A stretch of DNA of 64,000 nt from a virus (IMGVR_UViG_3300033498_000048:1-64000), one strand, 5' to 3'; numbered from the stretch's first letter, positions 17,322-51,980 are shown. The notes: a model not told the origin generated them from the letters alone. Made by a program: numbers and translations.

Positions 17322-17582
17322 TTAAATTACCACTTTGTAGATTTCTAAATGTGTTACTGATAATGCAGATTTAACTAATATTGTATCAAACTTTGTTGGA
17401 ATTATATAAATCTTATCTTGGTATAATTCTAATATCTTGAATGGTTGATTTAACATATCTCCATCAAAAACGTTTACATAATTGTCTGTATCAAGAAATT
17501 GACACCATTCAACATCAGTTAGTCTGAATGATTCTTTACATGATTCGGTTAATTTTACCAAATCACCAACTTGGAACTCCAT
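17322..17582 (-). CDS. hypothetical protein
   Basis: 86-aa ORF starting MEFQVGDLV. Confidence 0.6.
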   Translation of the reverse strand: MEFQVGDLVKLTESCKESFRLTDVEWCQFLDTDNYVNVFDGDMLNQPFKILELYQDKIYIIPTKFDTILVKSALSVTHLEIYKVVI

Positions 17583-17714
17583 AATTAAACTCCAGTGTTA
17601 TTTGAATTAATTGGTACAGTGGATTAAAGGTTTGTTGTGCTTTAACATAGACTTGCATTAATTCCACTTAATGCAACAATAACAGATTATTCGTGGAATT
17701 TTACCTAAGTAAAT

Positions 17715-17801
17715 CAGAGAATAGCAGAATCGAACTGCAAGGCTTTTATGTCCTTGAACTGTTTTCCAAACAGCCATCATAACCATATGATAATATTCTC
17801 T
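17715..17801 (-). tRNA. tRNA-Ser(GGA)
   Basis: Acceptor AGAGAAT/ATTCTCT, G73, loop TTGGAAA, long variable arm, T-loop TTCGATT; CCA not encoded. Confidence 0.8.
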
Positions 17802-18043
17802 AGGAATTGTGATATTAGCGATTCACGCATTCTTAAATTATCGTGGCTTACGAAACCCTCTTATATTAAAGAATATAGCCGAATAATTTTCAATAATACT
17901 AATATCAAACTTTAAACATTATGCTTGGAATCTCACTAAATCCATAATCATACTATTATTCCCAGTTGTTTAAGTTGTTCAAGTATTATAATTACTTAAA
18001 TAATGAAGTCAATAATTATTTTGATGTGGTTGGAGAATCGAAC

Positions 18044-18260
18044 TAATTAAAAATAACAATGGTTGGTACTGAATTTCCAACATAGAATCCACTTTAAAAC
18101 ATATTCACGTTTTCGCCTCAGACCCAAGATTGCCATCTTTTTGTGCGTGTTCGGGTTCTTCATTTCGGGTGCATATTCCCTAATCTGTCAGGATTCTTAC
18201 AACCAGGAACGTACCTAAGATATGTGTATCAGCCTACACATTCATTGTTATTTTTAATTA
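18044..18260 (-). ncRNA. unknown structured RNA closed by an 18-bp perfect stem
   Basis: TAATTAAAAATAACAATG/CATTGTTATTTTTAATTA; GC-richer non-coding interior; strand inferred from neighbours. Confidence 0.45.
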
Positions 18261-18347
18261 ACTCTGGAATACAATCTTTAGTGATATGTAATAACTCTTT
18301 TAAGGTGAATAATGTTTACTGACATAGTAAACCTTAAGGTTAATGTG

Positions 18348-18437
18348 TGGAGCTCCATGGGAGAGTCGAACTCCCAACACGCTTGCGCGATGTGACGGGT
18401 TACAAAGCCGTTCCTGTACCAGTTGAGGCAATGGAGC
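18348..18437 (-). tRNA. tRNA-Thr(TGT) with long variable arm
   Basis: Acceptor GCTCCAT/ATGGAGC, U73, CCA; loop TTTGTAA; variable region CACATCGCGCAAGCGTGTT; T-loop TTCGACT. Confidence 0.8.
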
Positions 18438-18446
18438 TTTAATGCG

Positions 18447-18603
18447 TTATGGTTTATGGCAAGACACTGGGTTTTCACCAATACTATTAAGAGTCACCTT
18501 AATATATTCAGTGGTTCAATCAAGTGACTTAATCTTGTTAATTTCCACTTACTATGGTTGGAATCGTTCACCAATCATCATTCAGTCCTGCCATAAACCA
18601 TAA
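18447..18603 (-). ncRNA. unknown structured RNA closed by a 15-bp perfect stem
   Basis: TTATGGTTTATGGCA/TGCCATAAACCATAA; internal GTCAC/GTGAC helix. Confidence 0.45.
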
Positions 18604-18604
18604 A

Positions 18605-18742
18605 GGCTTAGAATACCATTCTTAAACACTCATCATATATGCAAATCCTGAGAAGGAAGTTTATCGGTTTTACCAGCATATTTAGATTAGTAAGTTATCT
18701 CGGTTATTCTTATTTGAGTGAATAAGAATGGTATTCTAAGCC
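18605..18742 (-). ncRNA. unknown structured RNA closed by a 20-bp perfect stem
   Basis: GGCTTAGAATACCATTCTTA/TAAGAATGGTATTCTAAGCC, continued by CACTCA/TGAGTG. Confidence 0.5.
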
Positions 18743-18879
18743 AAAGATGGTATGAACAATCAAATATAGTTTTTATCGCGTTTTAATATTAAACTACGTC
18801 CATGTTACTGGACGATTGGACTTTACCAATATCACGTCATTGGAAGTGAAGTATCTATATTTTACACAATACCATCTTT
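18743..18879 (-). ncRNA. Y RNA-like gene (YrlA type, diverged tRNA module)
   Basis: 11-bp end stem; internal loop TGTGTA/GATTGTTC; stem AAATATAG/CTATATTT; ATACTTC; T-like ATTGG/CCAAT; closed acceptor CGTCCA/TGGACG; D-like TAGTTTAATATTAAAAC. Confidence 0.65.
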
Positions 18880-19201
18880 TAAAAACAAATTATTCCCAAA
18901 TTCCAATACAGTTAAATTTACCTGTATCAACATCAAACGTAAATGATACAGAAAAACCATTGTAACCAGTAACATTTTCTGGACTATCGTGACATTTTTC
19001 AATAGAAAGCACAACTTTACCTCTATCTGTCACTTCATCAACGTTGAGGTTTAATGAGTTGCTTTGTTTGTTCTAAATCAGTCATTATTAGATTCCTAGT
19101 TTAAATGGATACTATAAACACATTTAAATTGATGTCAATCAACTAAATTCTGTTTGAGTTTTCTTTATTTAACGTGGGACTATTCTATCACCACAATAAT
19201 A

Positions 19202-19444
19202 CTATTTTAACCAATGAATCCCTGGAGCATAATGCTTTTCAATAAATTTAACATCTTTTTTTGTAGCATCGAATCCAAGTAATATTGAATCACCATGAGG
19301 GTTTAATACCTCAGTTAAAAAATCATCAACATCACAATCAGCGTCCAACATAGCAAAATCTTCACGGTCAGTCGGGTATTCTTTCACTTCAAAAACATGG
19401 CAACTAAATGGGTCAGGCATTGGAACGTGCATTAATTTCTTCAT
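19202..19444 (-). CDS. hypothetical protein
   Basis: 80-aa ORF. Confidence 0.6.
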   Translation of the reverse strand: MKKLMHVPMPDPFSCHVFEVKEYPTDREDFAMLDADCDVDDFLTEVLNPHGDSILLGFDATKKDVKFIEKHYAPGIHWLK

Positions 19445-19455
19445 TTTTTATAATC

Positions 19456-19860
19456 CTATATCAAAAATTTGTCATTAATATCATAATGTAATTTAGTTTC
19501 TGGGATAACATCTTTATTATCCAATACCATTTTCTTAATATCATTAAATCTTTTTTCAAGTGATTGTGTTGTTACACCTTTCAATGACTTTGCTCTGATT
19601 TTAGCTATTGAATAAGCACAATATGTTCCAGATTCTGGTCTAATGTACATACTGTGTCCAGATTCTGCATAAAACACACCATCTGTTATAGTGAATCCAT
19701 AATTCAACACATCATTTTCAAAGTACCCATTCGTTACTTCTGTCTTATCTTTTGCCAAATAACCTCTACACATCAACAACTCTGTATTACCACCAACAGA
19801 TATTTTTGACTTAGGAAAAACTTTATTCCAAGTGTTAATAACGTCTTCTTTATTTACCAT
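19456..19860 (-). CDS. hypothetical protein
   Basis: 134-aa ORF. Confidence 0.65.
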   Translation of the reverse strand: MVNKEDVINTWNKVFPKSKISVGGNTELLMCRGYLAKDKTEVTNGYFENDVLNYGFTITDGVFYAESGHSMYIRPESGTYCAYSIAKIRAKSLKGVTTQSLEKRFNDIKKMVLDNKDVIPETKLHYDINDKFLI

Positions 19861-20253
19861 ACTATAATACTCTCAAGGATTGTTATATTGTGGAACACAT
19901 AATACACATTTTATTCCAAAGAGTCAACATAAATTTGTGTATTAAGCTAGAAACGTTCTTTTAATGTCTTTCACAGTTGTTCCATATAGTAACAATTCGT
20001 AAACTGTATTAGTGTCACTATGATTCCAAAGCGTTCCAGAATCAATAGACTTAAGTATTTTGATGATTGTTGTTTTAATCGACTTTCTATTAATAGGCTA
20101 AATGAGTAGTTTGTACCATAATATCCCTATGGATTACCTTTCCAGCCCACATAGTTCGAGTAATTCTTGACGTGGAGTTTTGTGAGATTTGTTTATAATT
20201 CACATTATATTGAGTTTGTTATTAACCAGTTTACTTTTTAAAACATCTATTTG

Positions 20254-20343
20254 TGGATATGGAAGGAATTGAACCTACGATGTTTACCACGAGGGAACGG
20301 ATTTACAGTCCGATGATGCACAACCAACAGCACCCTCATATCC
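20254..20343 (-). tRNA. tRNA-Tyr(GTA)
   Basis: Acceptor GGATATG/CATATCC, A73, loop CTGTAAA, long variable arm, T-loop TTCAATT. Confidence 0.85.
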
Positions 20344-20352
20344 AAATTTATT

Positions 20353-20440
20353 ATTTAATAATTTACCAGAAACAATCCGATTCGGTGTTTATTTCACCAA
20401 AGAAGTAACCGAGTCATTCATCATGGCAAATTATTAAATA
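20353..20440 (-). ncRNA. short Y RNA-like gene (no tRNA module)
   Basis: End stem ATTTAATAATTT..CCA/TGG..AAATTATTAAAT enclosing TGATGA...GGTTACTTC...GATTGTTTC. Confidence 0.6.
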
Positions 20441-20477
20441 TTGTGTGGATGTTATTTCCACACATTTATTATTTAAC

Positions 20478-20551
20478 TGGTGCATCTGGGAGGAATTGAA
20501 CCTACTTCGCTCGATTATCAGTCGAGTGTTAGACCATTTAACTACAGATGC
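20478..20551 (-). tRNA. tRNA-Ile(GAT)
   Basis: Acceptor GCATCTG/CAGATGC, CCA, arm CTCGA-CTGATAA-TCGAG. Confidence 0.9.
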
Positions 20552-20843
20552 AATTGTAATATATCTTTTGAAGTCCATATCAAACAAATTGTTTATCTTT
20601 TAACAACATTAATAGAATTAAAAGATAAATGTTGACTTCACTGTTCACCTAGTAAATTAACGTATTCAAAATTCCCAGATTCAACAGAAGCTAGTACCTT
20701 TAGTATTTCATTTTGTAATTCATCACCACTTATATTTTGATTAGACCCTGGATATACATCTATTAGTGTTAGTCCAACATCATTCAGTTTATCGTTTAAA
20801 TCATTCACATTACACCTATATTCGTAAATTCGTTGAGTCTATT

Positions 20844-21119
20844 CTACCAACTGTAGACTTTTTTGATTTGCACACTTTCTATAACATACCAATATTGCCA
20901 TGTTCCACATTCACCGTTAGGGTCATCGACCCCACATTCATCGTAATCGACAGAGGTTATAACTTCCACATCATACCTCAAGTTATCAACCATCATATCA
21001 AATTTAAAGGTCTTTGTACCTTTAAACCAGTTACATCCAATGTTACACAGTTCGTTTCTGATAAAATACCAGATTGCTTCCTCTACATCAACAGATTTAA
21101 TGGTACGCAATTCAATCAT
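20844..21119 (-). CDS. hypothetical acidic protein
   Basis: ATG at 21119 (MIELRTIK); the longer 21206 call runs into tRNA-His. Confidence 0.6.
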   Translation of the reverse strand: MIELRTIKSVDVEEAIWYFIRNELCNIGCNWFKGTKTFKFDMMVDNLRYDVEVITSVDYDECGVDDPNGECGTWQYWYVIESVQIKKVYSW

Positions 21120-21151
21120 AATAACTCCAATTCTAACCAACACTTCATTAT

Positions 21152-21225
21152 GGGCGATTGATGGGAATTGAACCCACATCTTTGGGGTCACAACCCAACA
21201 CTTCAACCACTAAGCTACAATCGCC
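21152..21225 (-). tRNA. tRNA-His(GTG)
   Basis: G-1:C73, arm TTGGG-TTGTGAC-CCCAA, T-loop TTCAATT. Confidence 0.9.
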
Positions 21226-21330
21226 ATCGTTTTGAACTTTAGCTCAATCTATATGGATTCCATATATCTTAACTATTATAATACATTAATTCACATAACA
21301 TAAAAGATGTTAGATTTGATAATAAAACCA

Positions 21331-21381
21331 TGGACGCGAAAGGACTCTAACCTTAACTTACAATTGATTCAATTTGCGCCC
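21331..21381 (-). pseudogene. tRNA remnant (acceptor plus T-arm; D and anticodon arms deleted)
   Basis: GGGCGCA...AAGG-TTAGAGT-CCTT-TCGCGTCCA, only about 51 nt. Confidence 0.45.
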
Positions 21382-21402
21382 TAGAGTTTTATTATTGATA
21401 AT

Positions 21403-21489
21403 TGGTACGGATGATGGGACTCGAACCCACACGCTCTTTCGAGCAAGGGATTTTAAGTCCCTCGTGTCTACAATTTTCACCACATCCGC
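21403..21489 (-). tRNA. tRNA-Leu(TAA)
   Basis: GCGGATG/CATCCGT, A73, CCA, loop CTTAAAA, long variable arm. Confidence 0.92.
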
Positions 21490-21503
21490 ATTATTTGAAA
21501 AGT

Positions 21504-21578
21504 TGGTCGGAGCTGGGAGAATCGAACTCCCTTAATCTGGTTCCCAAAACCAGCGACTAACCAATAGCCTAAACTCCG
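21504..21578 (-). tRNA. tRNA-Pro(TGG)
   Basis: CGGAGTT/AGCTCCG, CCA, arm CTGGT-TTTGGGA-ACCAG. Confidence 0.9.
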
Positions 21579-21735
21579 TTTATTGTTTTCGTTTCGCACT
21601 TTTGATGGTGGCGAAACACCATTTTAACTTGATAGACTAAAGCAATTTCCCCGTAGCGTGTGGCTGAATCTATTGCTAACAGCTCAACGAATTTCACGTT
21701 GCGATTGATACCTACGCGAGTTTGTCTATCTATTT

Positions 21736-21818
21736 TGGTAGGCGACCTGGGACTCGAACCCAGAATGACATGGAGTCTAAATCCACTAGCTTTGCCAATT
21801 TGCATTAGTCAGTCGCCC
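21736..21818 (-). tRNA. atypical tRNA-Leu(TAG)
   Basis: GGGCGAC/GTCGCCT, A73, CCA; arm GTGGA-TTTAGAC-TCCAT; extended 5' connector and only a 6-nt variable region. Confidence 0.8.
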
Positions 21819-21824
21819 ATATTA

Positions 21825-21937
21825 TTTAAAAATTAACTAGAAACAATCTAAAACAGTATTAGAGGTTGAAATCATTGTTCCAACCTATTTCAATATAATG
21901 GAAGTAACCGTTTCATACACCATAGTTAATTTTTAAA
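21825..21937 (-). ncRNA. Y RNA-like gene (no tRNA module)
   Basis: End stem TTTAAAAATTAACTA/TAGTTAATTTTTAAA; TGGTGTA-TGAAAC-GGTTACTTC ... GTTTTA-GATTGTTTC; internal hairpin AGGTTG/CAACCT. Confidence 0.65.
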
Positions 21938-21940
21938 CCT

Positions 21941-22032
21941 TGGTGGGTAATGTAGGAATCAAACCTACTAGAGTCCTTTCGGAACTGACAGATTTACAGT
22001 CTGTTGCGACCCTTCAACTTCGCCGATTACCC
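21941..22032 (-). tRNA. tRNA-Tyr(GTA), second copy
   Basis: GGGTAAT/ATTACCC, A73, CCA, arm ACAGA-CTGTAAA-TCTGT, long variable arm. Confidence 0.88.
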
Positions 22033-22047
22033 TCTATTTTTACTTTG

Positions 22048-22118
22048 TGGATGCCCTAAGAGTCGAACTTAGAAGGTCAATATTACAGTCAGTCCCCGAT
22101 ACACTTGACTAGACATCC
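22048..22118 (-). pseudogene. degenerate tRNA with broken anticodon arm
   Basis: Acceptor GGATGTC/GGCATCC, D stem AGTC/GACT and T-arm CTAAG-TTCGACT-CTTAG intact; anticodon/variable region about 5 nt short and unpaired. Confidence 0.55.
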
Positions 22119-22447
22119 TTTTATTATTTGAGCCGTTTATTGGACTTTAACCATTGAGGCAATCACTCCTCACACACTTTAGAAACGACTTGGAAATTTA
22201 TCATTAAATGCTACAGCAAAATCATTACCGAACCTAACTAATATTTCATAATATACTTTGATTCGAGTTGACCTATTTAATACAAATTCTGATACTTCAT
22301 TGGTAAACTCGTTATTAACAAAGTATTCAGCAGCTTCTTCAACATCTAACATTTTATGTACCTTAACTTGATTGCTTGATTAAGTGTCACATTTTAAACT
22401 ATTTTAAAACAATGTCAACACTTTTTAAACAATCAAATGTTATTATG

Positions 22448-22519
22448 TAGCGAGTGTGGGAATCAAACCCACGACCTTTGGCTTATGAGACCAAAAAGCT
22501 ATCACTGCTATAACTCGCT
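22448..22519 (-). tRNA. tRNA-Met(CAT), body resembles initiator type
   Basis: AGCGAGT/ACTCGCT, arm TTGGT-CTCATAA-GCCAA; lacks the three G-C pairs typical of initiators. Confidence 0.8.
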
Positions 22520-22720
22520 ACATAATAACACTTTAATACATATTCCCTAATATTCCAGGACGATACAACTCCTTTGAACACTTTACACATCTATAAACAT
22601 GACATTTGTAACTTTCACTCACAATAATACTATTATAGTGAATGTATTTGAATACATGATTACAAAACCAACGCCTAAAAAATAACATTTCATTCACCCA
22701 CAACAACTTTAAATAAACAC

Positions 22721-22860
22721 ACTAGAAACAATCAAATACAGATATTATCGTGCTTTTACCATTAAGCTAAATGTCCACAAATATTGGACATTAAGAGAAT
22801 CGAACCCTCCTAAGTCTGCTAGACAGGCAGCCACACTCCCAGAGTGTGACAGCACCATTA
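22721..22860 (-). ncRNA. chimeric tRNA-Asp(GTC) / Y RNA-like gene
   Basis: 5' part GGTGCTG, D-like arm, CTGC-CTGTCTA-GCAG and T-arm; 3' part closed acceptor AATGTCC/GGACATT, D-arm TAGCTTAATGGTAAAAGC and GATTGTTTCTAG. Confidence 0.6.
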
Positions 22861-22865
22861 TTTAT

Positions 22866-23117
22866 TTAACAATTCAATCGTTTTAATTGGTTTACATCAT
22901 TTATCGTTCTACCAAAAATAACACATTTTTTAGTCATGTACCAATTAGACGCTTTAGTTACTTGACCAACTTTATATTCAATGAAAACATTATCACTTTT
23001 AAATTGAAATGATTGTGGATAATGTTTATTCGCATCATTTTTAAACTTTGGAGCAAAGGTCTCGATTAAAACTAAATACTCAGAAATAGCTTTCTTTTCA
23101 TCACTTGATAACTTCAT
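22866..23117 (-). CDS. hypothetical protein (paralogue of 23427-23639)
   Basis: ATG at 23117 (MKLSSDEK); the longer call overlaps tRNA-Asn. Confidence 0.65.
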   Translation of the reverse strand: MKLSSDEKKAISEYLVLIETFAPKFKNDANKHYPQSFQFKSDNVFIEYKVGQVTKASNWYMTKKCVIFGRTINDVNQLKRLNC

Positions 23118-23150
23118 TTTCAATTCCACTGATATTTCAAATAATATTAG

Positions 23151-23236
23151 CTCTATTGGGAGGACTCGAACCTCCATACGGTTTCCCGAATACAAAGCAT
23201 TAACAGTGCTTCCTCTTGCCATTAGAGTACAATAGA
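23151..23236 (-). tRNA. tRNA-Asn(GTT) with long variable arm
   Basis: TCTATTG/CAATAGA, G73, arm AAGCA-CTGTTAA-TGCTT, variable region TGTATTCGGGAAACCGTAT, T-arm GGAGG-TTCGAGT-CCTCC. Confidence 0.82.
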
Positions 23237-23365
23237 GCTAATATTACTAAATTGACGTAAAACATTCAATAGCTATGTTTATCATTTAAATATGAAGTAA
23301 CTATCATATACACTATAAAGGTTTCACTTATCAAGTTATTTAGTAATTATAAATTACTTGATTTA

Positions 23366-23639
23366 TAATGTCAAGCGTTTTAACTGGTTTACATCATTTG
23401 TTTTCACTCCAAACACCGTTACATCTTTACATCTTTACATCTTTAGTCATGTACCAATTATCTAGTTCTTTATTTCCACGCACAACTTTATAATCAATGT
23501 CAAGATTAGGATTCATAAACTGGAAAACCTGTAAATGGTGTTTAGTTGAATCATTTTTAAACAGATATGTAGCATTTACTTGAATCAAATCCAAATATGT
23601 TTGAATTGCCGATTTTTCAGCCACAGTTAATTGTTTCAT
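23366..23639 (-). pseudogene. paralogue of 22866-23117, frameshifted by an 8-bp tandem repeat
   Basis: (AAAGATGT)x3 at 23421-23444 gives a premature TAA; a single copy restores TKDVTVFGVKTNDVNQLKRL, matching TKKCVIFGRTINDVNQLKRL. Confidence 0.7.
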
Positions 23640-23713
23640 TGTACTACCTCATAATATATGTGTTCAAATCATAATGCACATTATATTTATAAGGTACTAC
23701 CGTGTCAAGTGTT

Positions 23714-24808
23714 TTATTTAAAACTATGTTCAAACACTAATATCTTCTTGTTCAATTCTTCTAACAATTCCAACCGTTTATCTTCTTTAAATGGTTGGAT
23801 GGTTATTAGTTGCTTCAAGTCAACATCAAATGATTTTTCAACAATATCGAGCTTACAAGATGAATGAAATATCGGTAAACAATTATTCCAAACTGCTCCA
23901 ATAAGCCTATCAATAGATATTACATTAGTGTCATATGCTGGAAAAACCATTGTATATCTAGTCCTTGATAACCTTTCGTTGTATTCATTCCAACTCAAAT
24001 ACCGATTATTAACACCAACCCTATCACTCTTAATATAAATTTCTGAATCGGTAAAATTATTTGCGAATCCATATAACTCGTTTTTATATAGTGTATCCCT
24101 ATTATGGGATTTCATATAAGTTGTATATCCACCAATGAAATTTATATTCTTATCAAGATTCGGTTTGATACTATGATTCAATAAATAATATTGATGTGAG
24201 TCCAACCTATTTGTATCATATTGTGGAATACCATATCCATAATATTTGTAATATTCATATTTTGGATAAATAGTTTGAAACAAATCACACGACATTTCAG
24301 TTGTATCAAAATTGTATTCGTGTAATGGAATTTTATATTCATTGTGAGCCTTTAACATCACCAATATATTAAAAATCCTAGATGCAGCACTCATAAACTT
24401 AAGTTGTCCAGAATCAAATGGAAATACATTACACCTGCGACTATTCCTAAAAAAATGTGAAGTGTGTTGAACATAACTTCCAATAATAAACAATTTTGAA
24501 TAATGCTGGAGGCTACTAACATCTATTTTTTCATAAACATCGTACCAAGATGTATATTGATGCGATATATACTGCTCATATAATAAATGTAACGAGAAGT
24601 TTATATCCAACCCCATCTCATTATTAAAGAATGTTATATCACTATTCGTTTTGTTATTTGATAACATATCAACATCAAATCCGATAGATTTTAAGATGGC
24701 AAGATGCCTTCGCCAATTTGCAGCATTAGTGGAAGTCGAAGTCGAAGCTCCAGTATAAAACAATATTTTAGACTTATTTTCTACGCTTGTATTATTCACA
24801 TCAATCAC
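23714..24808 (-). CDS. probable GT-B-fold glycosyltransferase
   Basis: 364 aa; C-terminal YNERLSRTRYTMVFPAYD...IDRLIGAVWNNCLPIF resembles the GT-B donor-binding segment of phage glucosyltransferases. Confidence 0.5.
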   Translation of the reverse strand: MIDVNNTSVENKSKILFYTGASTSTSTNAANWRRHLAILKSIGFDVDMLSNNKTNSDITFFNNEMGLDINFSLHLLYEQYISHQYTSWYDVYEKIDVSSLQHYSKLFIIGSYVQHTSHFFRNSRRCNVFPFDSGQLKFMSAASRIFNILVMLKAHNEYKIPLHEYNFDTTEMSCDLFQTIYPKYEYYKYYGYGIPQYDTNRLDSHQYYLLNHSIKPNLDKNINFIGGYTTYMKSHNRDTLYKNELYGFANNFTDSEIYIKSDRVGVNNRYLSWNEYNERLSRTRYTMVFPAYDTNVISIDRLIGAVWNNCLPIFHSSCKLDIVEKSFDVDLKQLITIQPFKEDKRLELLEELNKKILVFEHSFK

Positions 24809-24828
24809 CTATACGATATATAAAAATG

Positions 24829-24836
24829 TATTTATA
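24829..24836 (-). promoter_or_regulatory. T4-type late promoter TATAAATA
   Basis: Exact consensus on the minus strand, 20 nt upstream of ORF 24808. Confidence 0.55.
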
Positions 24837-24857
24837 CACAGTATAGGTGCTATTTAG

Positions 24858-25913
24858 TTATTGTTTGTGTACACTAAATTTCATAAGGTTTGGAGTAACA
24901 ATATTCACGAATCTATCAACTCCAGGTTCATCTTTTAATTGTGTCCAATCAGTGCCATTCCAGTACTTGAATATTTCAGACTCGTTCCAGTGTTTCAAAT
25001 CACATCTTGAAAATGTTACGTTACACTTATTACAAGCGTATGGAGTATCAGCTCTATTTTTATACCTAAGTCTACGTCTGATGGTTTGCATTTCCTCACC
25101 ATACCAAAACTTTTTAAAACCATCAACACCATCTAAAACATTGCCAAACTTGCCTTTAGTGACTTGTAATCCATCTTGACAGCACAACAAATAAGAACCA
25201 TCGGACGCTACAGTTACATACAAAAACGGTTGGTTACAACGTCTAGTTAATGGTTTTTCTAATGGACGCATATTGAAGTTTTTTTGAGCAGTTCCCCTAT
25301 CCCAATTCATGTTTCCATACCAATTCCCTAATAGTCCAGCTCTAAGTCTTGACTTGGGCCATGTAGATGGTTCGTCCATCAACACAATGATTTTCAAATC
25401 TGGACCATGATATTTCCATGGAGATGGAGCATTTTCAGGTTTATTATAATAACTGTAAAATGGATAACCAGATTCGGTTGCTAATTGCTCATATCTTTCA
25501 TGTGGTCCATATTGGTCAACATATAACACATTAGCACCAGCATCCAACAAATCTTTCATTTTATACTTGCCAGACAATAACTTTGTTCCATTTGTTGTAA
25601 TTTGGATTTGTGTCAATGGAGCAAGTTCTCTAGCAACTGGTAACAAAGTTAATAATTCATCGTTTAATGTCGGTTCACCCACGAACCCACATAAATCAAC
25701 TCTAACTGTTGGGGAAACCTCATTCAATATTTCAAATGTTCTTTTCCACACCAATTCATTCATTTTATTGTTATTAGATTTTGGAATTAAATCAGCACAA
25801 CAATGGTCGCATTTTAAATTACACCCAAATGCTGGTTCAATACTCCACACAATAGGAGAGGTTGAACCCAATGGTTTAATTTTTTTAGGAGTTTTTATTT
25901 TTTTAAATTCCAT
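24858..25913 (-). CDS. radical SAM / SPASM(twitch)-domain protein
   Basis: CNLKCDHC (CxxxCxxC), GEPTL, ITTNG, C-terminal RCNQPF...VASDGSYLLCC...CNKC. Confidence 0.88.
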   Translation of the reverse strand: MEFKKIKTPKKIKPLGSTSPIVWSIEPAFGCNLKCDHCCADLIPKSNNNKMNELVWKRTFEILNEVSPTVRVDLCGFVGEPTLNDELLTLLPVARELAPLTQIQITTNGTKLLSGKYKMKDLLDAGANVLYVDQYGPHERYEQLATESGYPFYSYYNKPENAPSPWKYHGPDLKIIVLMDEPSTWPKSRLRAGLLGNWYGNMNWDRGTAQKNFNMRPLEKPLTRRCNQPFLYVTVASDGSYLLCCQDGLQVTKGKFGNVLDGVDGFKKFWYGEEMQTIRRRLRYKNRADTPYACNKCNVTFSRCDLKHWNESEIFKYWNGTDWTQLKDEPGVDRFVNIVTPNLMKFSVHKQ

Positions 25914-25929
25914 TACAGTTCCCTAGTTT

Positions 25930-26110
25930 AATTACAAAATGAAGTTTGATTACAATAGAAACAATCATATGTGGTATGATTTGGCTATTGCTCTACCAAC
26001 TGAGCTACATTAACATAATTTGTTAATGGTGAGATTTGAACTCACGACAAATAGGTTTAAGATGTAACCACACATTTCACCATATTATAATCCAACTTCA
26101 TTTTGTAATT
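25930..26110 (-). ncRNA. yrlA: YrlA-type Y RNA (permuted tRNA mimic)
   Basis: Long end stem; TGGTGAA-ATGTGTGGT-TACATCT; T-arm GTGAG-TTCAAAT-CTCAC; loop-closed acceptor CATTAAC/GTTAATG; D-arm TAGCTCAGTTGGTAGAGC; ACCACATAT-GATTGTTTCTA. Confidence 0.8.
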
Positions 26111-26124
26111 AAACGGTTAATTAT

Positions 26125-26197
26125 TCCCCCTAGACAGAATCGAACTGTCATTCCCCGATTATGAGTCGGACACTTTTAACCAATAAGTTATAGGGGG
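26125..26197 (-). tRNA. tRNA(CAT), Ile2-like or elongator Met
   Basis: CCCCCTA/TAGGGGG, A73, arm TCCGA-CTCATAA-TCGGG. Confidence 0.85.
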
Positions 26198-26205
26198 TTA
26201 ATCTT

Positions 26206-26277
26206 TGGAGCGGATATGGGAACTCGAATCCCAGCAAATGGGTTGGAAGCCCATTGTCACACCTCGTGATTACCCGC
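26206..26277 (-). tRNA. tRNA-Gly(TCC)
   Basis: GCGGGTA/TATCCGC, U73, CCA, arm ATGGG-CTTCCAA-CCCAT. Confidence 0.88.
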
Positions 26278-26301
26278 AATATATTTATTTAATGTAATTT
26301 G

Positions 26302-26374
26302 TAAGCATGGCTCGATTTGAACGAACATTCCATGAGTCAAATTCATGTGTACTAACCAATTATACTACACGCCT
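26302..26374 (-). tRNA. tRNA-Gln(TTG)
   Basis: AGGCGTG/CATGCTT, arm CATGA-ATTTGAC-TCATG, T-loop TTCAAAT. Confidence 0.8.
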
Positions 26375-26389
26375 ACAAATTACACTAAA

Positions 26390-26489
26390 GTGATTTTACG
26401 GGGCTATGCTTTATCATAGAACCAACCCATGCTTTTAACATATGCAAAGCTCTAACCTTATAGGGAAAACATAAGCCCCGTAAAATCAC
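26390..26489. ncRNA. unknown RNA or hairpin closed by a 16-bp perfect stem
   Basis: GTGATTTTACGGGGCT/AGCCCCGTAAAATCAC around a 68-nt interior. Confidence 0.45.
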
Positions 26490-26646
26490 TCAATTAATTT
26501 TAATAATTCATATTGTTTCAATAGTCTTTTTTAACGTTATATTGACATCCACAACTCCATTCTTTTCCCTCGCATTTTAATTTGTGATAACGGTAAATGG
26601 CTTCCTCCACTTTTCATATTACACTAAACTCCGAAATGGTACACGT

Positions 26647-26844
26647 TTATGGATTCAAATAATATTGAACATCAGCATCCCACATCCAACTATTATCATC
26701 TAACCTCCACCCACCATACTCTTTTGTGAACAATTTAATGTTACCAGTTAGATTTTGAATTAGATATTGATTTCCAATTATTGGAACAACATCAATCACA
26801 CTAATCCACCCTAGTTTCTTTAACTTATTGTTAGACAATCTCAT
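26647..26844 (-). CDS. hypothetical protein
   Basis: 65-aa ORF. Confidence 0.55.
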   Translation of the reverse strand: MRLSNNKLKKLGWISVIDVVPIIGNQYLIQNLTGNIKLFTKEYGGWRLDDNSWMWDADVQYYLNP

Positions 26845-26873
26845 AATTAATTATTCCCATAACAAAACAAATT

Positions 26874-26966
26874 TGGCGGAAGAGGTGGGACTCGAACCCA
26901 CAAACCAACCTTCATTGGTCAAACAGTTTTCAAGACTGCGCAGTTCACCTATACTGTAGCTCTTCC
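26874..26966 (-). tRNA. tRNA-Ser(TGA)
   Basis: GGAAGAG/CTCTTCC, G73, CCA, loop CTTGAAA, long variable arm. Confidence 0.92.
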
Positions 26967-26968
26967 AT

Positions 26969-27044
26969 TGGTGGATGGTATTGAAATCGAATCAATTTCC
27001 CTGGATTTTCAGTCCAGTGCTATTACCAAACTAGCTCACCATCC
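26969..27044 (-). tRNA. tRNA-Phe(GAA)
   Basis: GGATGGT/ACCATCC, CCA, arm CTGGA-CTGAAAA-TCCAG. Confidence 0.9.
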
Positions 27045-27313
27045 AATATTTTTTAAATAATCATTGTTTCTATATAATAACCTTTAATTGGTATTATTTA
27101 AAATTGTTAATTTGAACTCCAACCGTCATGTTGGAGAATAAGCTAGTCAACACAAATCTTGACGTATCAGAGGACTATATTACACACTGTGACATCAATA
27201 TCCTAGAAATGCTGAGTTCTATCAATTTTAAATAATAACACTATCACCACAAGTTTTTTAAATTATACATTGGCAGTTAATGATTGTCAACATCTAATTT
27301 CAATACTAATAAA

Positions 27314-27345
27314 TGGTGTTCCTGACTGGAATTGAATCCGTAACA
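27314..27345 (-). pseudogene. tRNA 3' remnant (T-arm, acceptor 3' strand, CCA)
   Basis: GGA-TTCAATT-CCAG-TCAGGAACACCA with no upstream cloverleaf. Confidence 0.4.
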
Positions 27346-27350
27346 TTAAT

Positions 27351-27500
27351 TTTTAAAAATACTAGGAATTTGCGAATATAGAGATTTTACACGCTCTACC
27401 ATTAAGCTAAATGACCCTCGTATTGGTCATTAGAGGAATCGAACCTCTATCATGTTCGCCGAATGAAGTAACTATATTCTACACCATAGTATTTTTAAAA
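27351..27500 (-). ncRNA. yrlA: YrlA-type Y RNA immediately downstream of the Ro60 gene
   Basis: 14-bp end stem; TGGTGTA-GAATATAG-TTACTTC; T-arm AGAGG-TTCGATT-CCTCT; closed acceptor AATGACC/GGTCATT; D-arm TAGCTTAATGGTAGAGC; CTATATTC. Confidence 0.82.
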
Positions 27501-27595
27501 ACTTTTTTAATCTACTTCCAAGATGTAGTATTTAGTACACCTTGGAAGTAAGACAATTAACTAACTGTTGCAAGTGCTAACTCATAGATAGTTTC

Positions 27596-29014
27596 CTAAC
27601 TATCTTCACTTTGATGGTTATCTAACCCTTCCATTGAAGCAATGTAAGTCAAAAATGAACTAGACCAACCACTGATTTCAGATGTCCACACACCTTTATA
27701 ATTAACACCATGCGAATGTGAACTTACATCAATAATGTAATTAAACTTCCCAAAAGGTTTTGGAGGTGCTTTTACTCTATCACAGTCCTGTGAGTCACTA
27801 AAGATAATAATCCTATCAAAATCTGTACCAACATTCAATTGACACCAATCTAAACATTGTCTAGTGAATATGCCACCTCCACCAACTTTAACCCTTTCAT
27901 CTTCAATTTGTTTTACTAAACCAAATCCTTTGTTTGGATATTTAATATGGTTGTGTTTGCCAGTATAAGTAGAATCAACCCCAGCAGTAATGACAAACTC
28001 AAAATCTTCACACATATTAATCGCAGCTATTGCCATTGCTGTTCCAGCATCCAATCGAGTGAACTCTGAATCTTTAGATGAAATCTCACTTCGCATTGAA
28101 CCAGATACATCAAGAATAATCAAAGACTTTCCAGTTAATTTACTTACATTTGCATAGCTACGGAACATTACTTCTTCAATATCACGCTCAAATTCAGGTG
28201 AATATCTAACTGCTTTAAAGTAATCTAAAGGAAGTAACATTCCAGTTTTAACATTAGCAATAGCGTTTTGAATAACAAGTCTATCAACTCCAGCAGCTTT
28301 CATGTTTCTGATATTGCGCAACAATGCTAATCCACCCAATTTGTTTTCTTGGATTAATCTTGTCCATGATTCTTTTTTATCAGCTCCACTAGACAATGCA
28401 ACTTCCCATGTATCTGGAGTTTGTAACGTGTTTTCAGCCAATTTTTTAAAGCAATCTGCTTGTTCTTGTGTTACTGTTTTTGGGTGTACCATAAACATGA
28501 CATCACGCAATTTAACTGCATTACCAGTACCACGATATTTAGCTAAAGAATATTCGTTAAAATTCAAAAACGCTTTCGCTATTCCACGTTTCATAGCACT
28601 TGGTAGTGGACGTTTACCTCCATTCCAGTACAATGAAACCAAATCTGATAACATATCAGCACGAGTACAAACTTTAGGAATGACATCTGCAATCAATGTA
28701 CGATGTGATTCATGTTTAGCCATTTCAACAATCATCAAAATTGGAACATGACGTAACTTTTGCATAACACGACATTCAATAGCCAATTTAGCAACTTCTT
28801 CTGGTTCACATAGTGGAATCAACACTTTAATCTGCGATGCAACTTCTAAACCATCGACATACGCATTGTTTTCCCACAACAAACAAGCTAACACTAATCT
28901 TCTCAATGTTAAGATATTGCTTTGTTTAGCTGCTACATTACCCATTCCACCTGCCAATCGAACGTCTTGTTCAAAACGGTTATCAACAGCTTTAGTGTTC
29001 ATTTTTTTAGACAT
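27596..29014 (-). CDS. rsr: Ro60/TROVE-domain RNA-binding protein with C-terminal vWA domain
   Basis: LRRLVLACLLWE, LRHVP, RADML, F.EYSLAKY, VKLRDVMFMVHPK, TWEVALS, ALLRNIRNM; MIDAS LDVSGSM and IIFSDSQ; GAGG RBS before ATG 29014. Confidence 0.92.
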   Translation of the reverse strand: MSKKMNTKAVDNRFEQDVRLAGGMGNVAAKQSNILTLRRLVLACLLWENNAYVDGLEVASQIKVLIPLCEPEEVAKLAIECRVMQKLRHVPILMIVEMAKHESHRTLIADVIPKVCTRADMLSDLVSLYWNGGKRPLPSAMKRGIAKAFLNFNEYSLAKYRGTGNAVKLRDVMFMVHPKTVTQEQADCFKKLAENTLQTPDTWEVALSSGADKKESWTRLIQENKLGGLALLRNIRNMKAAGVDRLVIQNAIANVKTGMLLPLDYFKAVRYSPEFERDIEEVMFRSYANVSKLTGKSLIILDVSGSMRSEISSKDSEFTRLDAGTAMAIAAINMCEDFEFVITAGVDSTYTGKHNHIKYPNKGFGLVKQIEDERVKVGGGGIFTRQCLDWCQLNVGTDFDRIIIFSDSQDCDRVKAPPKPFGKFNYIIDVSSHSHGVNYKGVWTSEISGWSSSFLTYIASMEGLDNHQSEDS

Positions 29015-29032
29015 TTTCAATCCTCATTACAT

Positions 29033-29066
29033 TAGGAACAATCTAATCGTTACATTAGACACCATA
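29033..29066 (-). promoter_or_regulatory. minimal Y-RNA-like motif in the Ro60 mRNA leader (putative autoregulatory site)
   Basis: TA-TGGTGTC-TAAT-GTAACG-ATTA-GATTGTTCC-TA reproduces the shared internal loop, 7 nt upstream of the GAGG RBS. Confidence 0.6.
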
Positions 29067-29316
29067 AATATTCATATATTGCTTTAATGTGGCTTCCACA
29101 GTTGCCACATTCTATCAATTAATTCTTTGCCAAAAGCTTGTTGCATATCTGTTAAACAATCACTACGCATACAACGTAATTGTGATAATGTTTCAAAGTC
29201 AACAGTAACTTGGGTTATATGTATTATCTATCAACACATTAAATCCGTCTACTTCCACTTTATCCACCTTTATCAGTTTAATTTATTTCCATGTCACTCG
29301 ATAAATGATTAATTTG

Positions 29317-29389
29317 TCACCCAGGTGGGACTTGAACCCACAACCCTTCAATTAAAAGTCGAATGCTCTTCCTATTGAGCTACTGGGTG
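29317..29389 (-). tRNA. tRNA-Lys(TTT)
   Basis: CACCCAG/CTGGGTG, D stem GCTC/GAGC, arm TTCGA-CTTTTAA-TTGAA. Confidence 0.9.
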
Positions 29390-29459
29390 ATAATTGAATC
29401 ACTAAACGTATCTTTTTATTATAGATACTTCCTAACTATCTGTCAACTGACTATTCACT

Positions 29460-29696
29460 TTAAGCTAACATCACATTATATTTCACACCTAAACCCAACA
29501 CTTGAGAGTTTTGTCTGAAATTTACATATTCTCCAGGTTGGTTTGGAACTTCAATTTTAAAATGTGTATAAGCATATAATCCATGCAATTTTACCATTTT
29601 AATGAATTGCATTAACAACATTTCATTTCCACAATCTTCACGGAATTTTGTGATTAGTGGTACTAATTTTTTCAAAACTTTATCATTTGCGTTCAT
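29460..29696 (-). CDS. hypothetical protein
   Basis: 78-aa ORF behind a TTGACT-N16-TATAAT promoter. Confidence 0.55.
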   Translation of the reverse strand: MNANDKVLKKLVPLITKFREDCGNEMLLMQFIKMVKLHGLYAYTHFKIEVPNQPGEYVNFRQNSQVLGLGVKYNVMLA

Positions 29697-30063
29697 AATA
29701 ATTAAGATTCAAGGTTAGTTAATATTTTTTTTATTATACAGTGTTATCCATCAAAGTCAACAAAATAATTAAAGATTACACCTAAAACTAACGCATCATA
29801 TTCGTGCGTTGATTAACCCTCCAGAGATTTCATGCTCTAATTCATCAATTAGTAGAATCAGATGTAATCTAAAAACATTAAAGTTATATACCTGTTCATA
29901 TAATAGCCACGAGTAAGGGGACAAAAACCCAAGTTAAACGTCTAGCCTAAAATTATACGAAGTGAGCTAGTTTACCTTCCACTCGTTTGTATTATCCAAT
30001 CCAATGGAATTAACAACAACCAAACTTAAAGTCAATAAAATATATAACTTAATGTTCCGAACT

Positions 30064-30363
30064 TCATAATTTTAAATTATAGCTATATTGAGGTTCAATG
30101 TCAACTTTTTTCAAACAATCTGCTGTTTTTTCTGACATGAATAGACAATCGCCCCGTCTGATTATTTGTCCATCTTCCATGACATCTTGTGTATCGACTC
30201 CAAATAAATCATCACAAAATCCATCTATTTCTTTTCGATACTCGTCACTAAATTCAACATCTTTCGATATTCTAAATCGAGATGCTTGAATTGGTCTAAC
30301 AATATGAACACTAAGTCCACCATAAGTTAAACCATTCTTATGTGTAGATTTGGGTTGGTTCAT
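30064..30363 (-). CDS. hypothetical protein
   Basis: 99-aa ORF, 4-nt coupling with the upstream ORF. Confidence 0.6.
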   Translation of the reverse strand: MNQPKSTHKNGLTYGGLSVHIVRPIQASRFRISKDVEFSDEYRKEIDGFCDDLFGVDTQDVMEDGQIIRRGDCLFMSEKTADCLKKVDIEPQYSYNLKL

Positions 30364-31079
30364 TTAGTTTCCTCCAGATTATATGTTACAATAGGTTTAA
30401 TACGATATAAATATTCTACTTTTGATGTTATTCTATTCATTGTAGATTTGATGTCATCGGATGATTTGAATGTCGTTCCGTCTCGTAACTTGACTATTCT
30501 TGGATTGACACTATTGAAAAATTCAACTCGACTAATTTCATTAAAATAATTAGCATCTAACGAACCATTACCGTGCTTTGTAAATATTATATTTACGGTT
30601 GGTGTACCACTTGATAAAAAATTATAATACCTTTCGATTGAAATAAAACTATCTTCATATAAGATTTCATGTGGATTAATTGGAACAAGTGAAAAGTGAC
30701 ACCTAGTATGTTCTTGCTTAATGTATATCTTATCATCAAATCCAATTGAATCTAAAACCCTGCAAATGTTAGTTAGTGATAACAAGTCACGAATATATGT
30801 TTCCAACTGGATATAATTAAATTCATTGCAGGTTTCGGTATATGGAAGCACAATTGGAACTTCTACAAATCCATGTAATTCAACAAATCCCAATAAGCGT
30901 TCAACTATAGTCTGCTTACTCGTATTACAATCGACAGTAATGCCAAGCTGTTTTTGTGTGATAAGTAAGTCTTCAATATCAATTTTGTCACTTTCAACTA
31001 TTGATTGAATCGCACATTTCGTCCCGACAATACTGACAAGGAACTCTATTTGTTTTAATAATTTCACACAACACTCCAT
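30360..31079 (-). CDS. hypothetical protein
   Basis: 239-aa ORF. Confidence 0.65.
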   Translation of the reverse strand: MECCVKLLKQIEFLVSIVGTKCAIQSIVESDKIDIEDLLITQKQLGITVDCNTSKQTIVERLLGFVELHGFVEVPIVLPYTETCNEFNYIQLETYIRDLLSLTNICRVLDSIGFDDKIYIKQEHTRCHFSLVPINPHEILYEDSFISIERYYNFLSSGTPTVNIIFTKHGNGSLDANYFNEISRVEFFNSVNPRIVKLRDGTTFKSSDDIKSTMNRITSKVEYLYRIKPIVTYNLEETK

Positions 31080-51461: not shown

Positions 51462-51980
51462 TTACCATTTGTTATCACCTTGAACATAACCGATTGCATT
51501 AATAATTTCATCCCATGAAACTGCTCTGTTTATTCCCAAATCATAACCATAATCTTCTGTTTCATGGGTTGAAATTGAATAATGTATCACTCCATCCTCA
51601 GTGATTAACGCTGTCAATATTCCTGAGTCCTTTGATTTAAAAGTTATGTTGAAATAACCAGTGTCTGCATCAATAGAAATACAAGGGTCATACTTTGAAA
51701 TTGTTGGAACCAAATAAAGAAAGTTCTTTGCGGATGCGTTTGAAATTTCTTTGAAGTGTTTGATTTTCTTAAAAGCCTCATTATAATTGGCTATAACCAC
51801 ATCGAATCGTACAAGGGTATTTTCCCATTCCTCTGTACTATGTTCCCAAGTATATAACATAGCCTCTCGATGAAAATCAATATTTAATTGTGTGATATAT
51901 TCTATCCACTTTTGTTCTAATTCGGTACACTTTGTCACCACGATAACCTCGATGTGTGATATTTTATGGATGCCTGTCAA
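51462..51980 (-). CDS. hypothetical protein
   Basis: 172-aa ORF, 4-nt coupling with HD-Pnk. Confidence 0.55.
   Translation of the reverse strand: MTGIHKISHIEVIVVTKCTELEQKWIEYITQLNIDFHREAMLYTWEHSTEEWENTLVRFDVVIANYNEAFKKIKHFKEISNASAKNFLYLVPTISKYDPCISIDADTGYFNITFKSKDSGILTALITEDGVIHYSISTHETEDYGYDLGINRAVSWDEIINAIGYVQGDNKW

Follow-up and report, generated by a model that had tools for sequence, protein, structure and literature searches.

The Ro60 gene and the Y-RNA-like loci of the tRNA cluster

We analyzed the first 64 kb (64,000 nucleotides, referred to below as the window) of a complete virus record, IMGVR_UViG_3300033498_000048, in which a gene for a Ro60 protein and a series of Y-RNA-like loci are located among tRNA genes on the minus strand (Table 1). 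The record is 305,782 bp long, has direct terminal repeats and a G+C content of 31%, and its size confirms the earlier designation as a jumbo phage. The complete tRNA set of the genome, as identified with ARAGORN, comprises 17 genes placed between 17.7 and 29.4 kb on the minus strand; about 20 had been counted in the first-pass annotation of the window. The tRNAs, the Y-RNA loci and the Ro60 gene occupy one common region of the genome. Judged from their sequences, the loci are very probably genes for Y RNAs that partner the phage's own Ro60.

The Ro60 open reading frame (ORF) starts at an ATG (29014) preceded by GAGG, in a frame that opens at TTG 29020. Its product matches the Pfam family TROVE (E 7.7e-14; 52 bits against a cut-off of 23) and PHROG 850 ('RNA-binding protein'), and its residues 39-464 align (E 4e-19) with the Ro60 protein of Thermus phage phiLo, for which structures have been solved (PDB 9L5Y/9KOP). 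The vWA MIDAS motif DVSGSM is in place in this alignment. The product is, by its sequence, a TROVE protein with a C-terminal vWA domain and a MIDAS of the DxSxS type, and a HEAT-repeat ring is predicted. The complete TROVE+vWA gene noted previously at this position is thus borne out, both by the Pfam score above the cut-off and by the nearly full-length alignment with the phiLo protein. The nearest relatives are the TROVE proteins of phages of the crAss001 group (57% identity to crAss001 gp96).

A second, very distant Ro60-like ORF (543 aa; 35967-37598, minus strand) was also found. It matches the same PHROG as Ro60 (phrog_850; E 1.3e-25), while its match to the vWA-like DUF7788 lies slightly under the cut-off of that family. 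BLASTP detected no similarity between this ORF and the Ro60 ORF, and no copy of the Y scaffold was found near it in the window with the rebuilt covariance model described below.

A common scaffold

Five loci (W1, W2, W3, W5 and W6), read on the minus strand, share one scaffold. It consists of an outer stem, the segment UGGUG(U/A)A, an 8-bp stem, (U/A)UAC(U/A)UC, a variable insert of 16-86 nt, the return strand of the 8-bp stem, the segment GAUUGUU(U/C)(C/A) (GCAAAUUCC in W6) and the return strand of the outer stem; the closed terminal stems are 8-22 bp long. In all five, two covarying helices flank UGGUGUA and GNUUGUUCC, followed by UUACUUC. Minimum-free-energy folding gives the scaffold for each of these strong loci (z from -2.1 to -3.7). 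When the conserved internal segment is read antiparallel, a G-C pair, a G·U pair, three mismatches, an A-U pair and two bulged bases are obtained; this reading of the consensus suggests a distorted helix instead of an open loop.

A strict pattern for the linear 5′ half of the scaffold, T[AGT][GA]TGNN-N8-[AT]TAC[AT]TC, matched six sites in the window; these lie between 18.8 and 27.5 kb on the minus strand, within the tRNA zone. At each of the six, the matching 3′ strand of the 8-bp stem is present and is followed by the 3′ loop. Chance alone is expected to produce approximately 2.9 matches in the whole 305-kb genome, and the five matches found elsewhere in it have non-canonical loops.

A first covariance model was seeded with seven short forms, of which two came from the window and the other five from crAss001 and IMG/VR relatives. 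It recovered three long copies of the window that this seed did not contain (49, 48.7 and 29.6 bits). A second model, rebuilt from 55 matches and run unfiltered on both strands of the window, detected the five loci and two weaker sites, W8 and W7 (Table 1); the best noise match had an E-value of 0.08. Further copies were not revealed either by a relaxed descriptor applied to the whole genome, which gave only noise at the level of shuffled sequence, or by the rebuilt model in the remaining 243 kb (nothing under E 0.39). No W locus overlaps a tRNA called by ARAGORN or by the Rfam tRNA model (RF00005), and in none do these models recognise a cloverleaf with an anticodon arm. At gathering thresholds, Rfam identifies only tRNAs in the window.

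The first-pass annotation had united six loci under this scaffold. Those at 18743, 20359, 21830, 25948 and 27355 stand (E 1e-15 to 3e-10) and the one at 22721 does not (E 5), so that its count of at least six Y-RNA-like genes is replaced by five firm copies, to which three atypical or decayed ones (W4, W7 and W8) are added.

Table 1. Location of Ro60, the Y-RNA-like loci and other features (window coordinates unless marked as genome coordinates)
Feature	Position	Strand	Basis and remarks
Ro60 (TROVE + vWA) gene	27596..29014	-	Pfam TROVE, PHROG 850, phiLo alignment
W1, long form, paralog of W6	18743..18879	-	first model 49 bits, non-seed; rebuilt model E 5e-12
W2, short type, 16-nt UGAAAUAAA loop	20359..20433	-	rebuilt model E 1e-15; fold z -3.2
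W3, short type with extra 9-bp apical hairpin	21830..21932	-	rebuilt model E 1.6e-15
W4, tRNA-like/Y chimera (22721 in the first-pass annotation)	22712..22870	-	rebuilt model E 5, not significant
W5, long YrlA-type	25948..26092	-	rebuilt model E 3e-10; fold z -2.7
W6, long YrlA-type	27355..27496	-	first model 48.7 bits, non-seed; rebuilt model E 3e-12; fold z -2.6
W7, minimal Y-like site in the Ro60 leader	29025..29074	-	rebuilt model 17.8 bits, E 0.04, just above noise
W8, decayed short-type copy	23249..23322	-	strict pattern match; rebuilt model 22 bits, E 0.0026
Predicted promoter, TTGACA-N17-TATAAT, 12 of 12	23346..23374	-	consensus match only
Radical SAM ORF	24858-25913		within the cluster; generic matches only
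PNK-like P-loop protein	51977-53209	-	member of tRNA-repair set
T4 Rnl1-type RNA ligase	genome 101579-102148	-	member of tRNA-repair set
Rnl2-type RNA ligase	genome 297344-297799	-	member of tRNA-repair set

Long, short and atypical copies

In the long forms of the window and of its relatives, UUACUUC is followed first by a variable hairpin and then by a T arm of the GGUUCGAAUCC type, the closed acceptor hairpin and, last, a D arm of the GUAGCUCAGUGGUAGAGC type. This permuted tRNA-like domain retains conserved nucleotides (UUCRAUY T loops and GG-containing D loops) in W5, W6 and W4, and is absent from W2, W3, W7 and W8. W6, located approximately 100 nt downstream of the Ro60 stop codon, has the T arm GAGG-UUCGAUU-CCUC, a closed acceptor hairpin and the D arm GCUU-AAUGGUA-GAGC. 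Its 3′ loop is GCAAAUUCC instead of the GAUUGUUUC implied by the loop consensus GATTGTT(T/C)C initially given for this locus. W5 starts 14 nt after tRNA-Met and its outer stem reaches 25930-26110; its D arm is canonical (AGCUCAGUUGGUAGAGC) and its T arm reads GUGAG-UUCAAAU-CUCAC. W1 (fold z -3.7) retains the three tRNA-like hairpins, in which the UUCRA of the T loop and the GG of the D loop have been lost. The order of T arm, closed acceptor stem and D arm, previously ascribed to three loci, therefore applies to W5 and W6, to W1 in respect of the hairpins only, and additionally to the locus at 22721 (W4). W1 and W6 are 70% identical over their full length, yet their outer stems are entirely different and compensated, each remaining fully paired, which points to selection on structure.

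Among the short forms, W2 is located 13 nt upstream of tRNA-Tyr and its loop is of the N-UGAAA-N type common to many relatives. Both stems of W3 are fully paired; tRNA-Tyr lies 5 nt upstream of this locus and tRNA-Leu 12 nt downstream, while W2, W5 and W8 are each 12-14 nt from one tRNA. With the exception of W6 and W7, the copies are 1.5-9 kb from Ro60, and all are on the Ro60 strand.

The 5′ part of W4 is tRNA-like (acceptor strand GGUGCUG, a D-like hairpin, a CUGUCUA loop with GUC, and a T arm), and its 3′ part, which comprises a closed acceptor hairpin, a D arm and GAUUGUUUC, is built as in W6. The two loci are 73% identical (69/95) over the stretch that begins with the T arm and runs to the 3′ end. 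W4 has neither the second stem nor UUACUUC, and neither Rfam tRNA nor YrlA matches it at E<=10; it is nevertheless structured (fold z -2.4). On sequence grounds, it appears to have arisen by recombination, with the junction at the T arm. W8, between a consensus promoter and tRNA-Asn, retains UAGUGUA, the stem, UUACUUC and the AUGAUAAAC loop, lacks the outer stem and does not fold (z +0.57), and is probably a relic.

W7 consists of UGGUGU, a hairpin of 5-7 bp and (G)AUUGUUCC, with a weak outer stem and no UUACUUC (fold z -1.0). It ends 10 nt before the Ro60 ATG and abuts GAGG, i.e. it stands where some of the relatives described below have a full short Y RNA, so that autoregulation or coupled processing is plausible. 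That Ro60 regulates itself through W7 is nevertheless doubtful.

Conservation and covariation in other phages

A blind scan of IMG/VR with the pattern TGGTGTA-N8-TTACTTC-N(21-51)-GNTTGTTYC yielded 20 loci, 15 of which have a Ro60 homologue in the few kb around them. Nearly all of these Ro60-bearing loci have both stems paired, with unrelated sequences. The five loci without a nearby Ro60 comprise one complete record with TROVE elsewhere and four fragments (3-50% complete). Overall, Ro60 was found in 16 of the 20 records, and in every complete record checked. The same pattern gave nine loci in 596 Gb of prokaryote genomes, two of them with pairing stems; the other seven, without pairing stems, are chance matches and serve as a control for the pattern.

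The two prokaryotic loci with pairing stems are located on contigs of rumen metagenome-assembled genomes, one of which is labelled Candidatus Xenobia, and contain two to three tandem copies (L050, 6593-6900; L054, 6511-6700). No Ro60 was detected by tblastn within 8 kb of these copies. The contigs may be phage contigs binned into the assembled genomes.

An alignment of 55 copies (an 18-sequence version was also made) was used to examine pairing. Its cells are paired in 90.7% of cases, compared with 51.8% after shuffling and at most 43.5% when slid, and 16 of the 16 pairs change on both sides. Since this alignment was fitted to the model, the model-free tables of pattern matches provide an independent check. 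The phage Y scaffold is a real RNA family, and the covariation in relatives that the initial proposal called for was found both through the covariance model and in the two-sided changes of the pairing test.

The copies mapped in relatives are all on the Ro60 strand, and most are in tandem just upstream of Ro60. Of the 23 Ro60 loci tabulated in relatives, 10 have a full short Y RNA whose end lies 1-41 nt ahead of the first in-frame ATG of Ro60, and in one IMG/VR relative the copies lie within an array of 12 tRNAs. The UGAAA-type loop is frequent in short forms across phages; W2 and W3 have it. The invariant part of the family is the scaffold linked to Ro60, not the tRNA module.

Number of copies per phage

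The papers searched report one to three Y-RNA candidates per phage. YrlA-related sequences have been found in 22 phages (Chen et al. 2014, PMC4201824), a study of a Listeria phage described three abundant RNAs near an Rsr-like gene, and a survey of jumbo phages placed TROVE proteins within sets of RNA-repair genes. Against this searched literature, the earlier statement that the window has far more copies than the one or two usually described holds. It does not hold against genomes scanned with the rebuilt model. Caulobacter jumbo phage CcrColossus (NC_019406) has eight tandem copies upstream of Ro60 (L042, 1704-2905), one of which overlaps an annotated 'tRNA-Gln' and the rest of which are unannotated; the Caulobacter jumbo phage CcrPW has seven unannotated tandem copies (L043, 2708-3906) and Xanthomonas phage Sopo has four. 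Two copies each were found in Microcystis phage Mvi-JY20, Rhizobium phage RHph_Y65 and Brevundimonas phage Gurke, one in a second Brevundimonas phage, and three to five in each of five IMG/VR records. With up to eight copies in cultured phages, the five to eight of the window are at the top of the range, not exceptional. The arrays of cultured phages have the same scaffold (E 1e-5 to 1e-15) on the Ro60 strand and are packed head to tail beside Ro60, whereas the copies of the window are spread over 10 kb, with tRNAs, small ORFs and a radical SAM gene between them.

Phage crAss001 has two copies of the scaffold together with tRNA-shaped ones. The latter, located downstream of Ro60 (L001, 6084-6227 and 6335-6490), are two RNAs with the normal strand order of a tRNA in which a Y docking module (a hairpin-closed stem, UGGUGUA or UAGUGUA, a stem and UUACUUC) occupies the position of the anticodon arm. 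The Rfam tRNA model scores 46.6 bits over 144 nt on the first of them. No Y RNA of this tRNA-shaped type was found in the genome analyzed here.

Genomic setting

The only sequencing run that contains this DNA is a microbial mat metagenome. Matches of the region to phage records are limited to one stretch of 67 nt, and relatives of the phage helicase are found only at under 30% identity. Five perfect (12-of-12) matches to TTGACA-N17-TATAAT occur in 17500-30500, all on the minus strand, with first hexamers at 30104, 29446, 27290, 23708 and 23374; four further sites match at 11 of 12 positions. These predicted promoters would define several strong transcription units containing tRNAs and Y RNAs, and the perfect set points to a host with canonical sigma-70, not to Bacteroidota. 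A crAss-like identity, first suggested by the similarity of Ro60 to that of crAss001, was rejected because of the genome size (306 kb, three times larger than in crAss-like phages), the TTGACA/TATAAT promoters, the GAGG ribosome-binding site and the short maximum match to phages.

The genome encodes RNA-repair proteins of three kinds (Rnl1, an Rnl2-type ligase and a PNK-like protein), none of them adjoining the Ro60/tRNA cluster; RtcB was not found in the genome. This gene content fits an RNA-repair or tRNA-maintenance setting.

Several other features of the cluster were recorded. Two tRNAs, tRNA-Thr(UGU) (18348-18437, minus strand, 90 nt) and tRNA-Asn(GUU) (23150-23236, minus strand, 87 nt), have long variable arms, which are normally restricted to Leu, Ser and Tyr tRNAs. 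Further ORF-free structured stretches, all on the minus strand, are present at 26381-26504, 18044-18260, 18447-18742 and 22040-22112. They include a long perfect hairpin, long-stem elements abutting around tRNA-Thr, and a tRNA-like stretch with an acceptor stem and a T arm that was not called by ARAGORN; the Y scaffold is absent from all four. Two small paralogous ORFs (22866-23116 and 23427-23639, minus strand), alike in their N-terminal and C-terminal motifs and without a family match, are located one after tRNA-Asn/W8 and the other just upstream of it.

Proposed function and alternative explanations

Overall, it is likely that the loci are Y RNA genes of the phage Ro60, each composed of a docking scaffold and an effector apex, and that their clade is almost confined to phages. 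The strict motif is confined to the tRNA/Ro60 zone and to one strand of it, and the scaffold travels with Ro60 genes across many phages. The connection with the phage Ro60 drawn at the outset is upheld, in that the long forms are of the YrlA type and the short forms lack the tRNA module.

We propose that Ro60 would dock on the conserved internal segment, as the counterpart of GNCGAA in bacterial YrlA and of GGUCCGA in animal Y RNAs. The variable apex would be the effector end: a permuted tRNA mimic in W5, W6 and W4 (decayed in W1), and an A-rich UGAAA loop in W2, W3 and W8. The RNAs would be transcribed from the strong sigma-70-type promoters of the tRNA cluster and, as their spacing of 5-14 nt to the flanking tRNAs suggests, they could be released by the RNase P and RNase Z cuts that process these tRNAs. 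The resulting ribonucleoprotein particles (RNPs) might gate Ro60 or tether it to host PNPase, by analogy with Deinococcus radiodurans and phiLo, or might take part in tRNA/rRNA quality control together with the phage RNA ligases and kinase. Either role, PNPase tether or RNA repair, is a tentative suggestion from these known systems. Translation of Ro60 may be repressed by Ro60 itself through the mini-site W7 on its leader.

Several observations weigh against this interpretation. W4, W7 and W8 are weak, and most copies are up to 10 kb away from Ro60, not beside it. The 5′ motif UGGUG(U/A)A, although G-rich and similarly placed, does not match the published GNCGAA. The comparison with the Rfam YrlA model, proposed as a check in the first-pass annotation, gave significant sub-threshold matches (detailed below), while no copy reaches the gathering score of 69 bits. 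The validated Yrl RNAs of phiLo escape the rebuilt model, so the link to biochemistry is one of analogy. Finally, no RNA runs are listed among the runs with this DNA, only the metagenomic DNA run.

The proximity of the loci to tRNAs, which they abut by 5-14 nt, the position of the last copy of the relatives, which ends 1-15 nt before the Ro60 ATG, and the overlap of W7 with the ribosome-binding region would also be expected of cis-acting elements of polycistronic tRNA/Ro60 transcripts (processing or stability signals, or Ro60-binding operators) that are not free RNAs with effector ends. We regard this as quite unlikely, since the long forms have the complete conserved tRNA-mimic module of free YrlA RNAs, stable excised RNAs typically have closed terminal stems such as these, of 8-22 bp, and the flanking tRNA processing sites would free the RNAs. 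The tRNA-like T and D arms, together with the location in a tRNA cluster and the tRNA-repair gene set of the phage, could likewise suit decoys or sponges that act independently of Ro60 on host tRNA-targeting defence nucleases or tRNA-modifying enzymes. This explanation is very improbable: the invariant part of the RNAs is the scaffold linked to Ro60, Ro60 co-occurs in every complete record checked, W1, W5 and W6 have no anticodon arm, and the short forms have no tRNA features. The idea of decoys for anticodon nucleases, in particular, fits poorly because the mimics have a Y stem in place of the anticodon arm. As to the state of the copies, W8 is unfolded, W4 is recombinant and W1 lacks the tRNA tertiary nucleotides, as if most copies of the window were decaying duplicates without present function and only W6, adjacent to Ro60, were active. 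It is hardly credible that this is so, given that in W1, W2, W3 and W5 both helices are still fully paired while differing in sequence, and the loops are conserved.

Within the interpretation of the loci as Y RNA genes, a more speculative and rather unlikely extension is that one Ro60, programmed by different Y RNAs that are made and processed with the phage tRNAs, forms a counter-defence unit. The tRNA-mimic Y RNAs would serve to recruit Ro60 to tRNA-handling enzymes, and the A-loop Y RNAs to recruit it to PNPase; with Rnl1, Rnl2 and PNK, tRNAs cut by host immune nucleases would be repaired or cleared, and Ro60 would set its own level via the mini-site in its leader.

Conservation of Ro60 and Y RNAs extends from bacteria to humans, and the roles of different Y RNAs are poorly understood. 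Phages with one Ro60 and up to eight Y RNAs represent compact natural experiments, in which an invariant docking module is combined with swappable ends; CcrColossus, Sopo and crAss001 are cultured carriers of the family. The models reveal that such RNAs occur widely in phage genomes and go unannotated, some being mislabelled as tRNA genes. The concentration of all tRNAs, Y RNAs and Ro60 in one region suggests the hypothesis that, during infection, Ro60 RNPs are connected with tRNA supply or repair.

Comparison with known Ro60 systems

In bacterial YrlA, a 5′ GNCGAA(N)G is located in the terminal stem and YUAY opens the variable region (Chen et al. 2014, PMC4201824); the hallmark of these RNAs is a permuted tRNA mimic composed of a T arm, a closed acceptor stem and a D arm (PMC4201824; 10.1101/312249). 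The phage copies resemble them in their paired ends with a presumed Ro60 site, in YUAY after the inner helix (present as UUAC, and as AUAC in W1), and in the tRNA mimic of W5, W6 and W4. The Rfam YrlA model (RF02553) matches W5 over its full length (37.1 bits, E 3.5e-5) and W6 less strongly (27.0 bits, E 0.03), and does not match W1, W2, W3 or W4; elsewhere, it gives 54.8 bits for the best relative and 42.3 bits for CcrColossus. The significant E-values of these YrlA matches run from 1e-9 to 3e-5. The long forms appear, from their sequences, to be divergent YrlA RNAs. The YrlA of Salmonella Typhimurium, Mycobacterium smegmatis and mycobacteriophages is likewise encoded on the Ro60/Rsr strand. 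The phage copies differ from bacterial YrlA in the conservation of both strands of the internal segment and of the 7-nt UUACUUC, and in being several and spread through a tRNA cluster.

The short forms, which match no Rfam family, can be likened to YrlB of S. Typhimurium, a shorter second Rsr-bound Y RNA without a tRNA domain, although this comparison of W2 and W3 is by description only. In both cases a docking stem occurs without the tRNA module, and short forms are found alongside long ones; a conserved UGAAA-type loop is particular to the phage short forms.

The Ro60 of phiLo binds the phage RNAs Yrl1 and Yrl2, and a ternary complex with host PNPase has been shown (PMC12135203; PDB 9L5Y, 9KOP). 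As in the window, Ro60 and the Y-like RNAs are both phage-encoded, the RNAs of phiLo being located upstream of Ro60; the phiLo system differs in having two RNAs with a CGAA bulge, and the Ro60 proteins, which align nearly full-length, are 26% identical.

Sequence homology of the phage copies to Yrn1 of the Rsr/PNPase complex (RYPER) of D. radiodurans and to animal Y RNAs is undetectable, and the tRNA-like part of Yrn1 is arranged differently. These RNAs are nevertheless modular in the same manner, with a Ro60-binding stem and an effector loop, and both strands of their docking helix are conserved, as in the phage copies. The system described here is of a known kind, and what is new is the dispersal of its array through a tRNA cluster.

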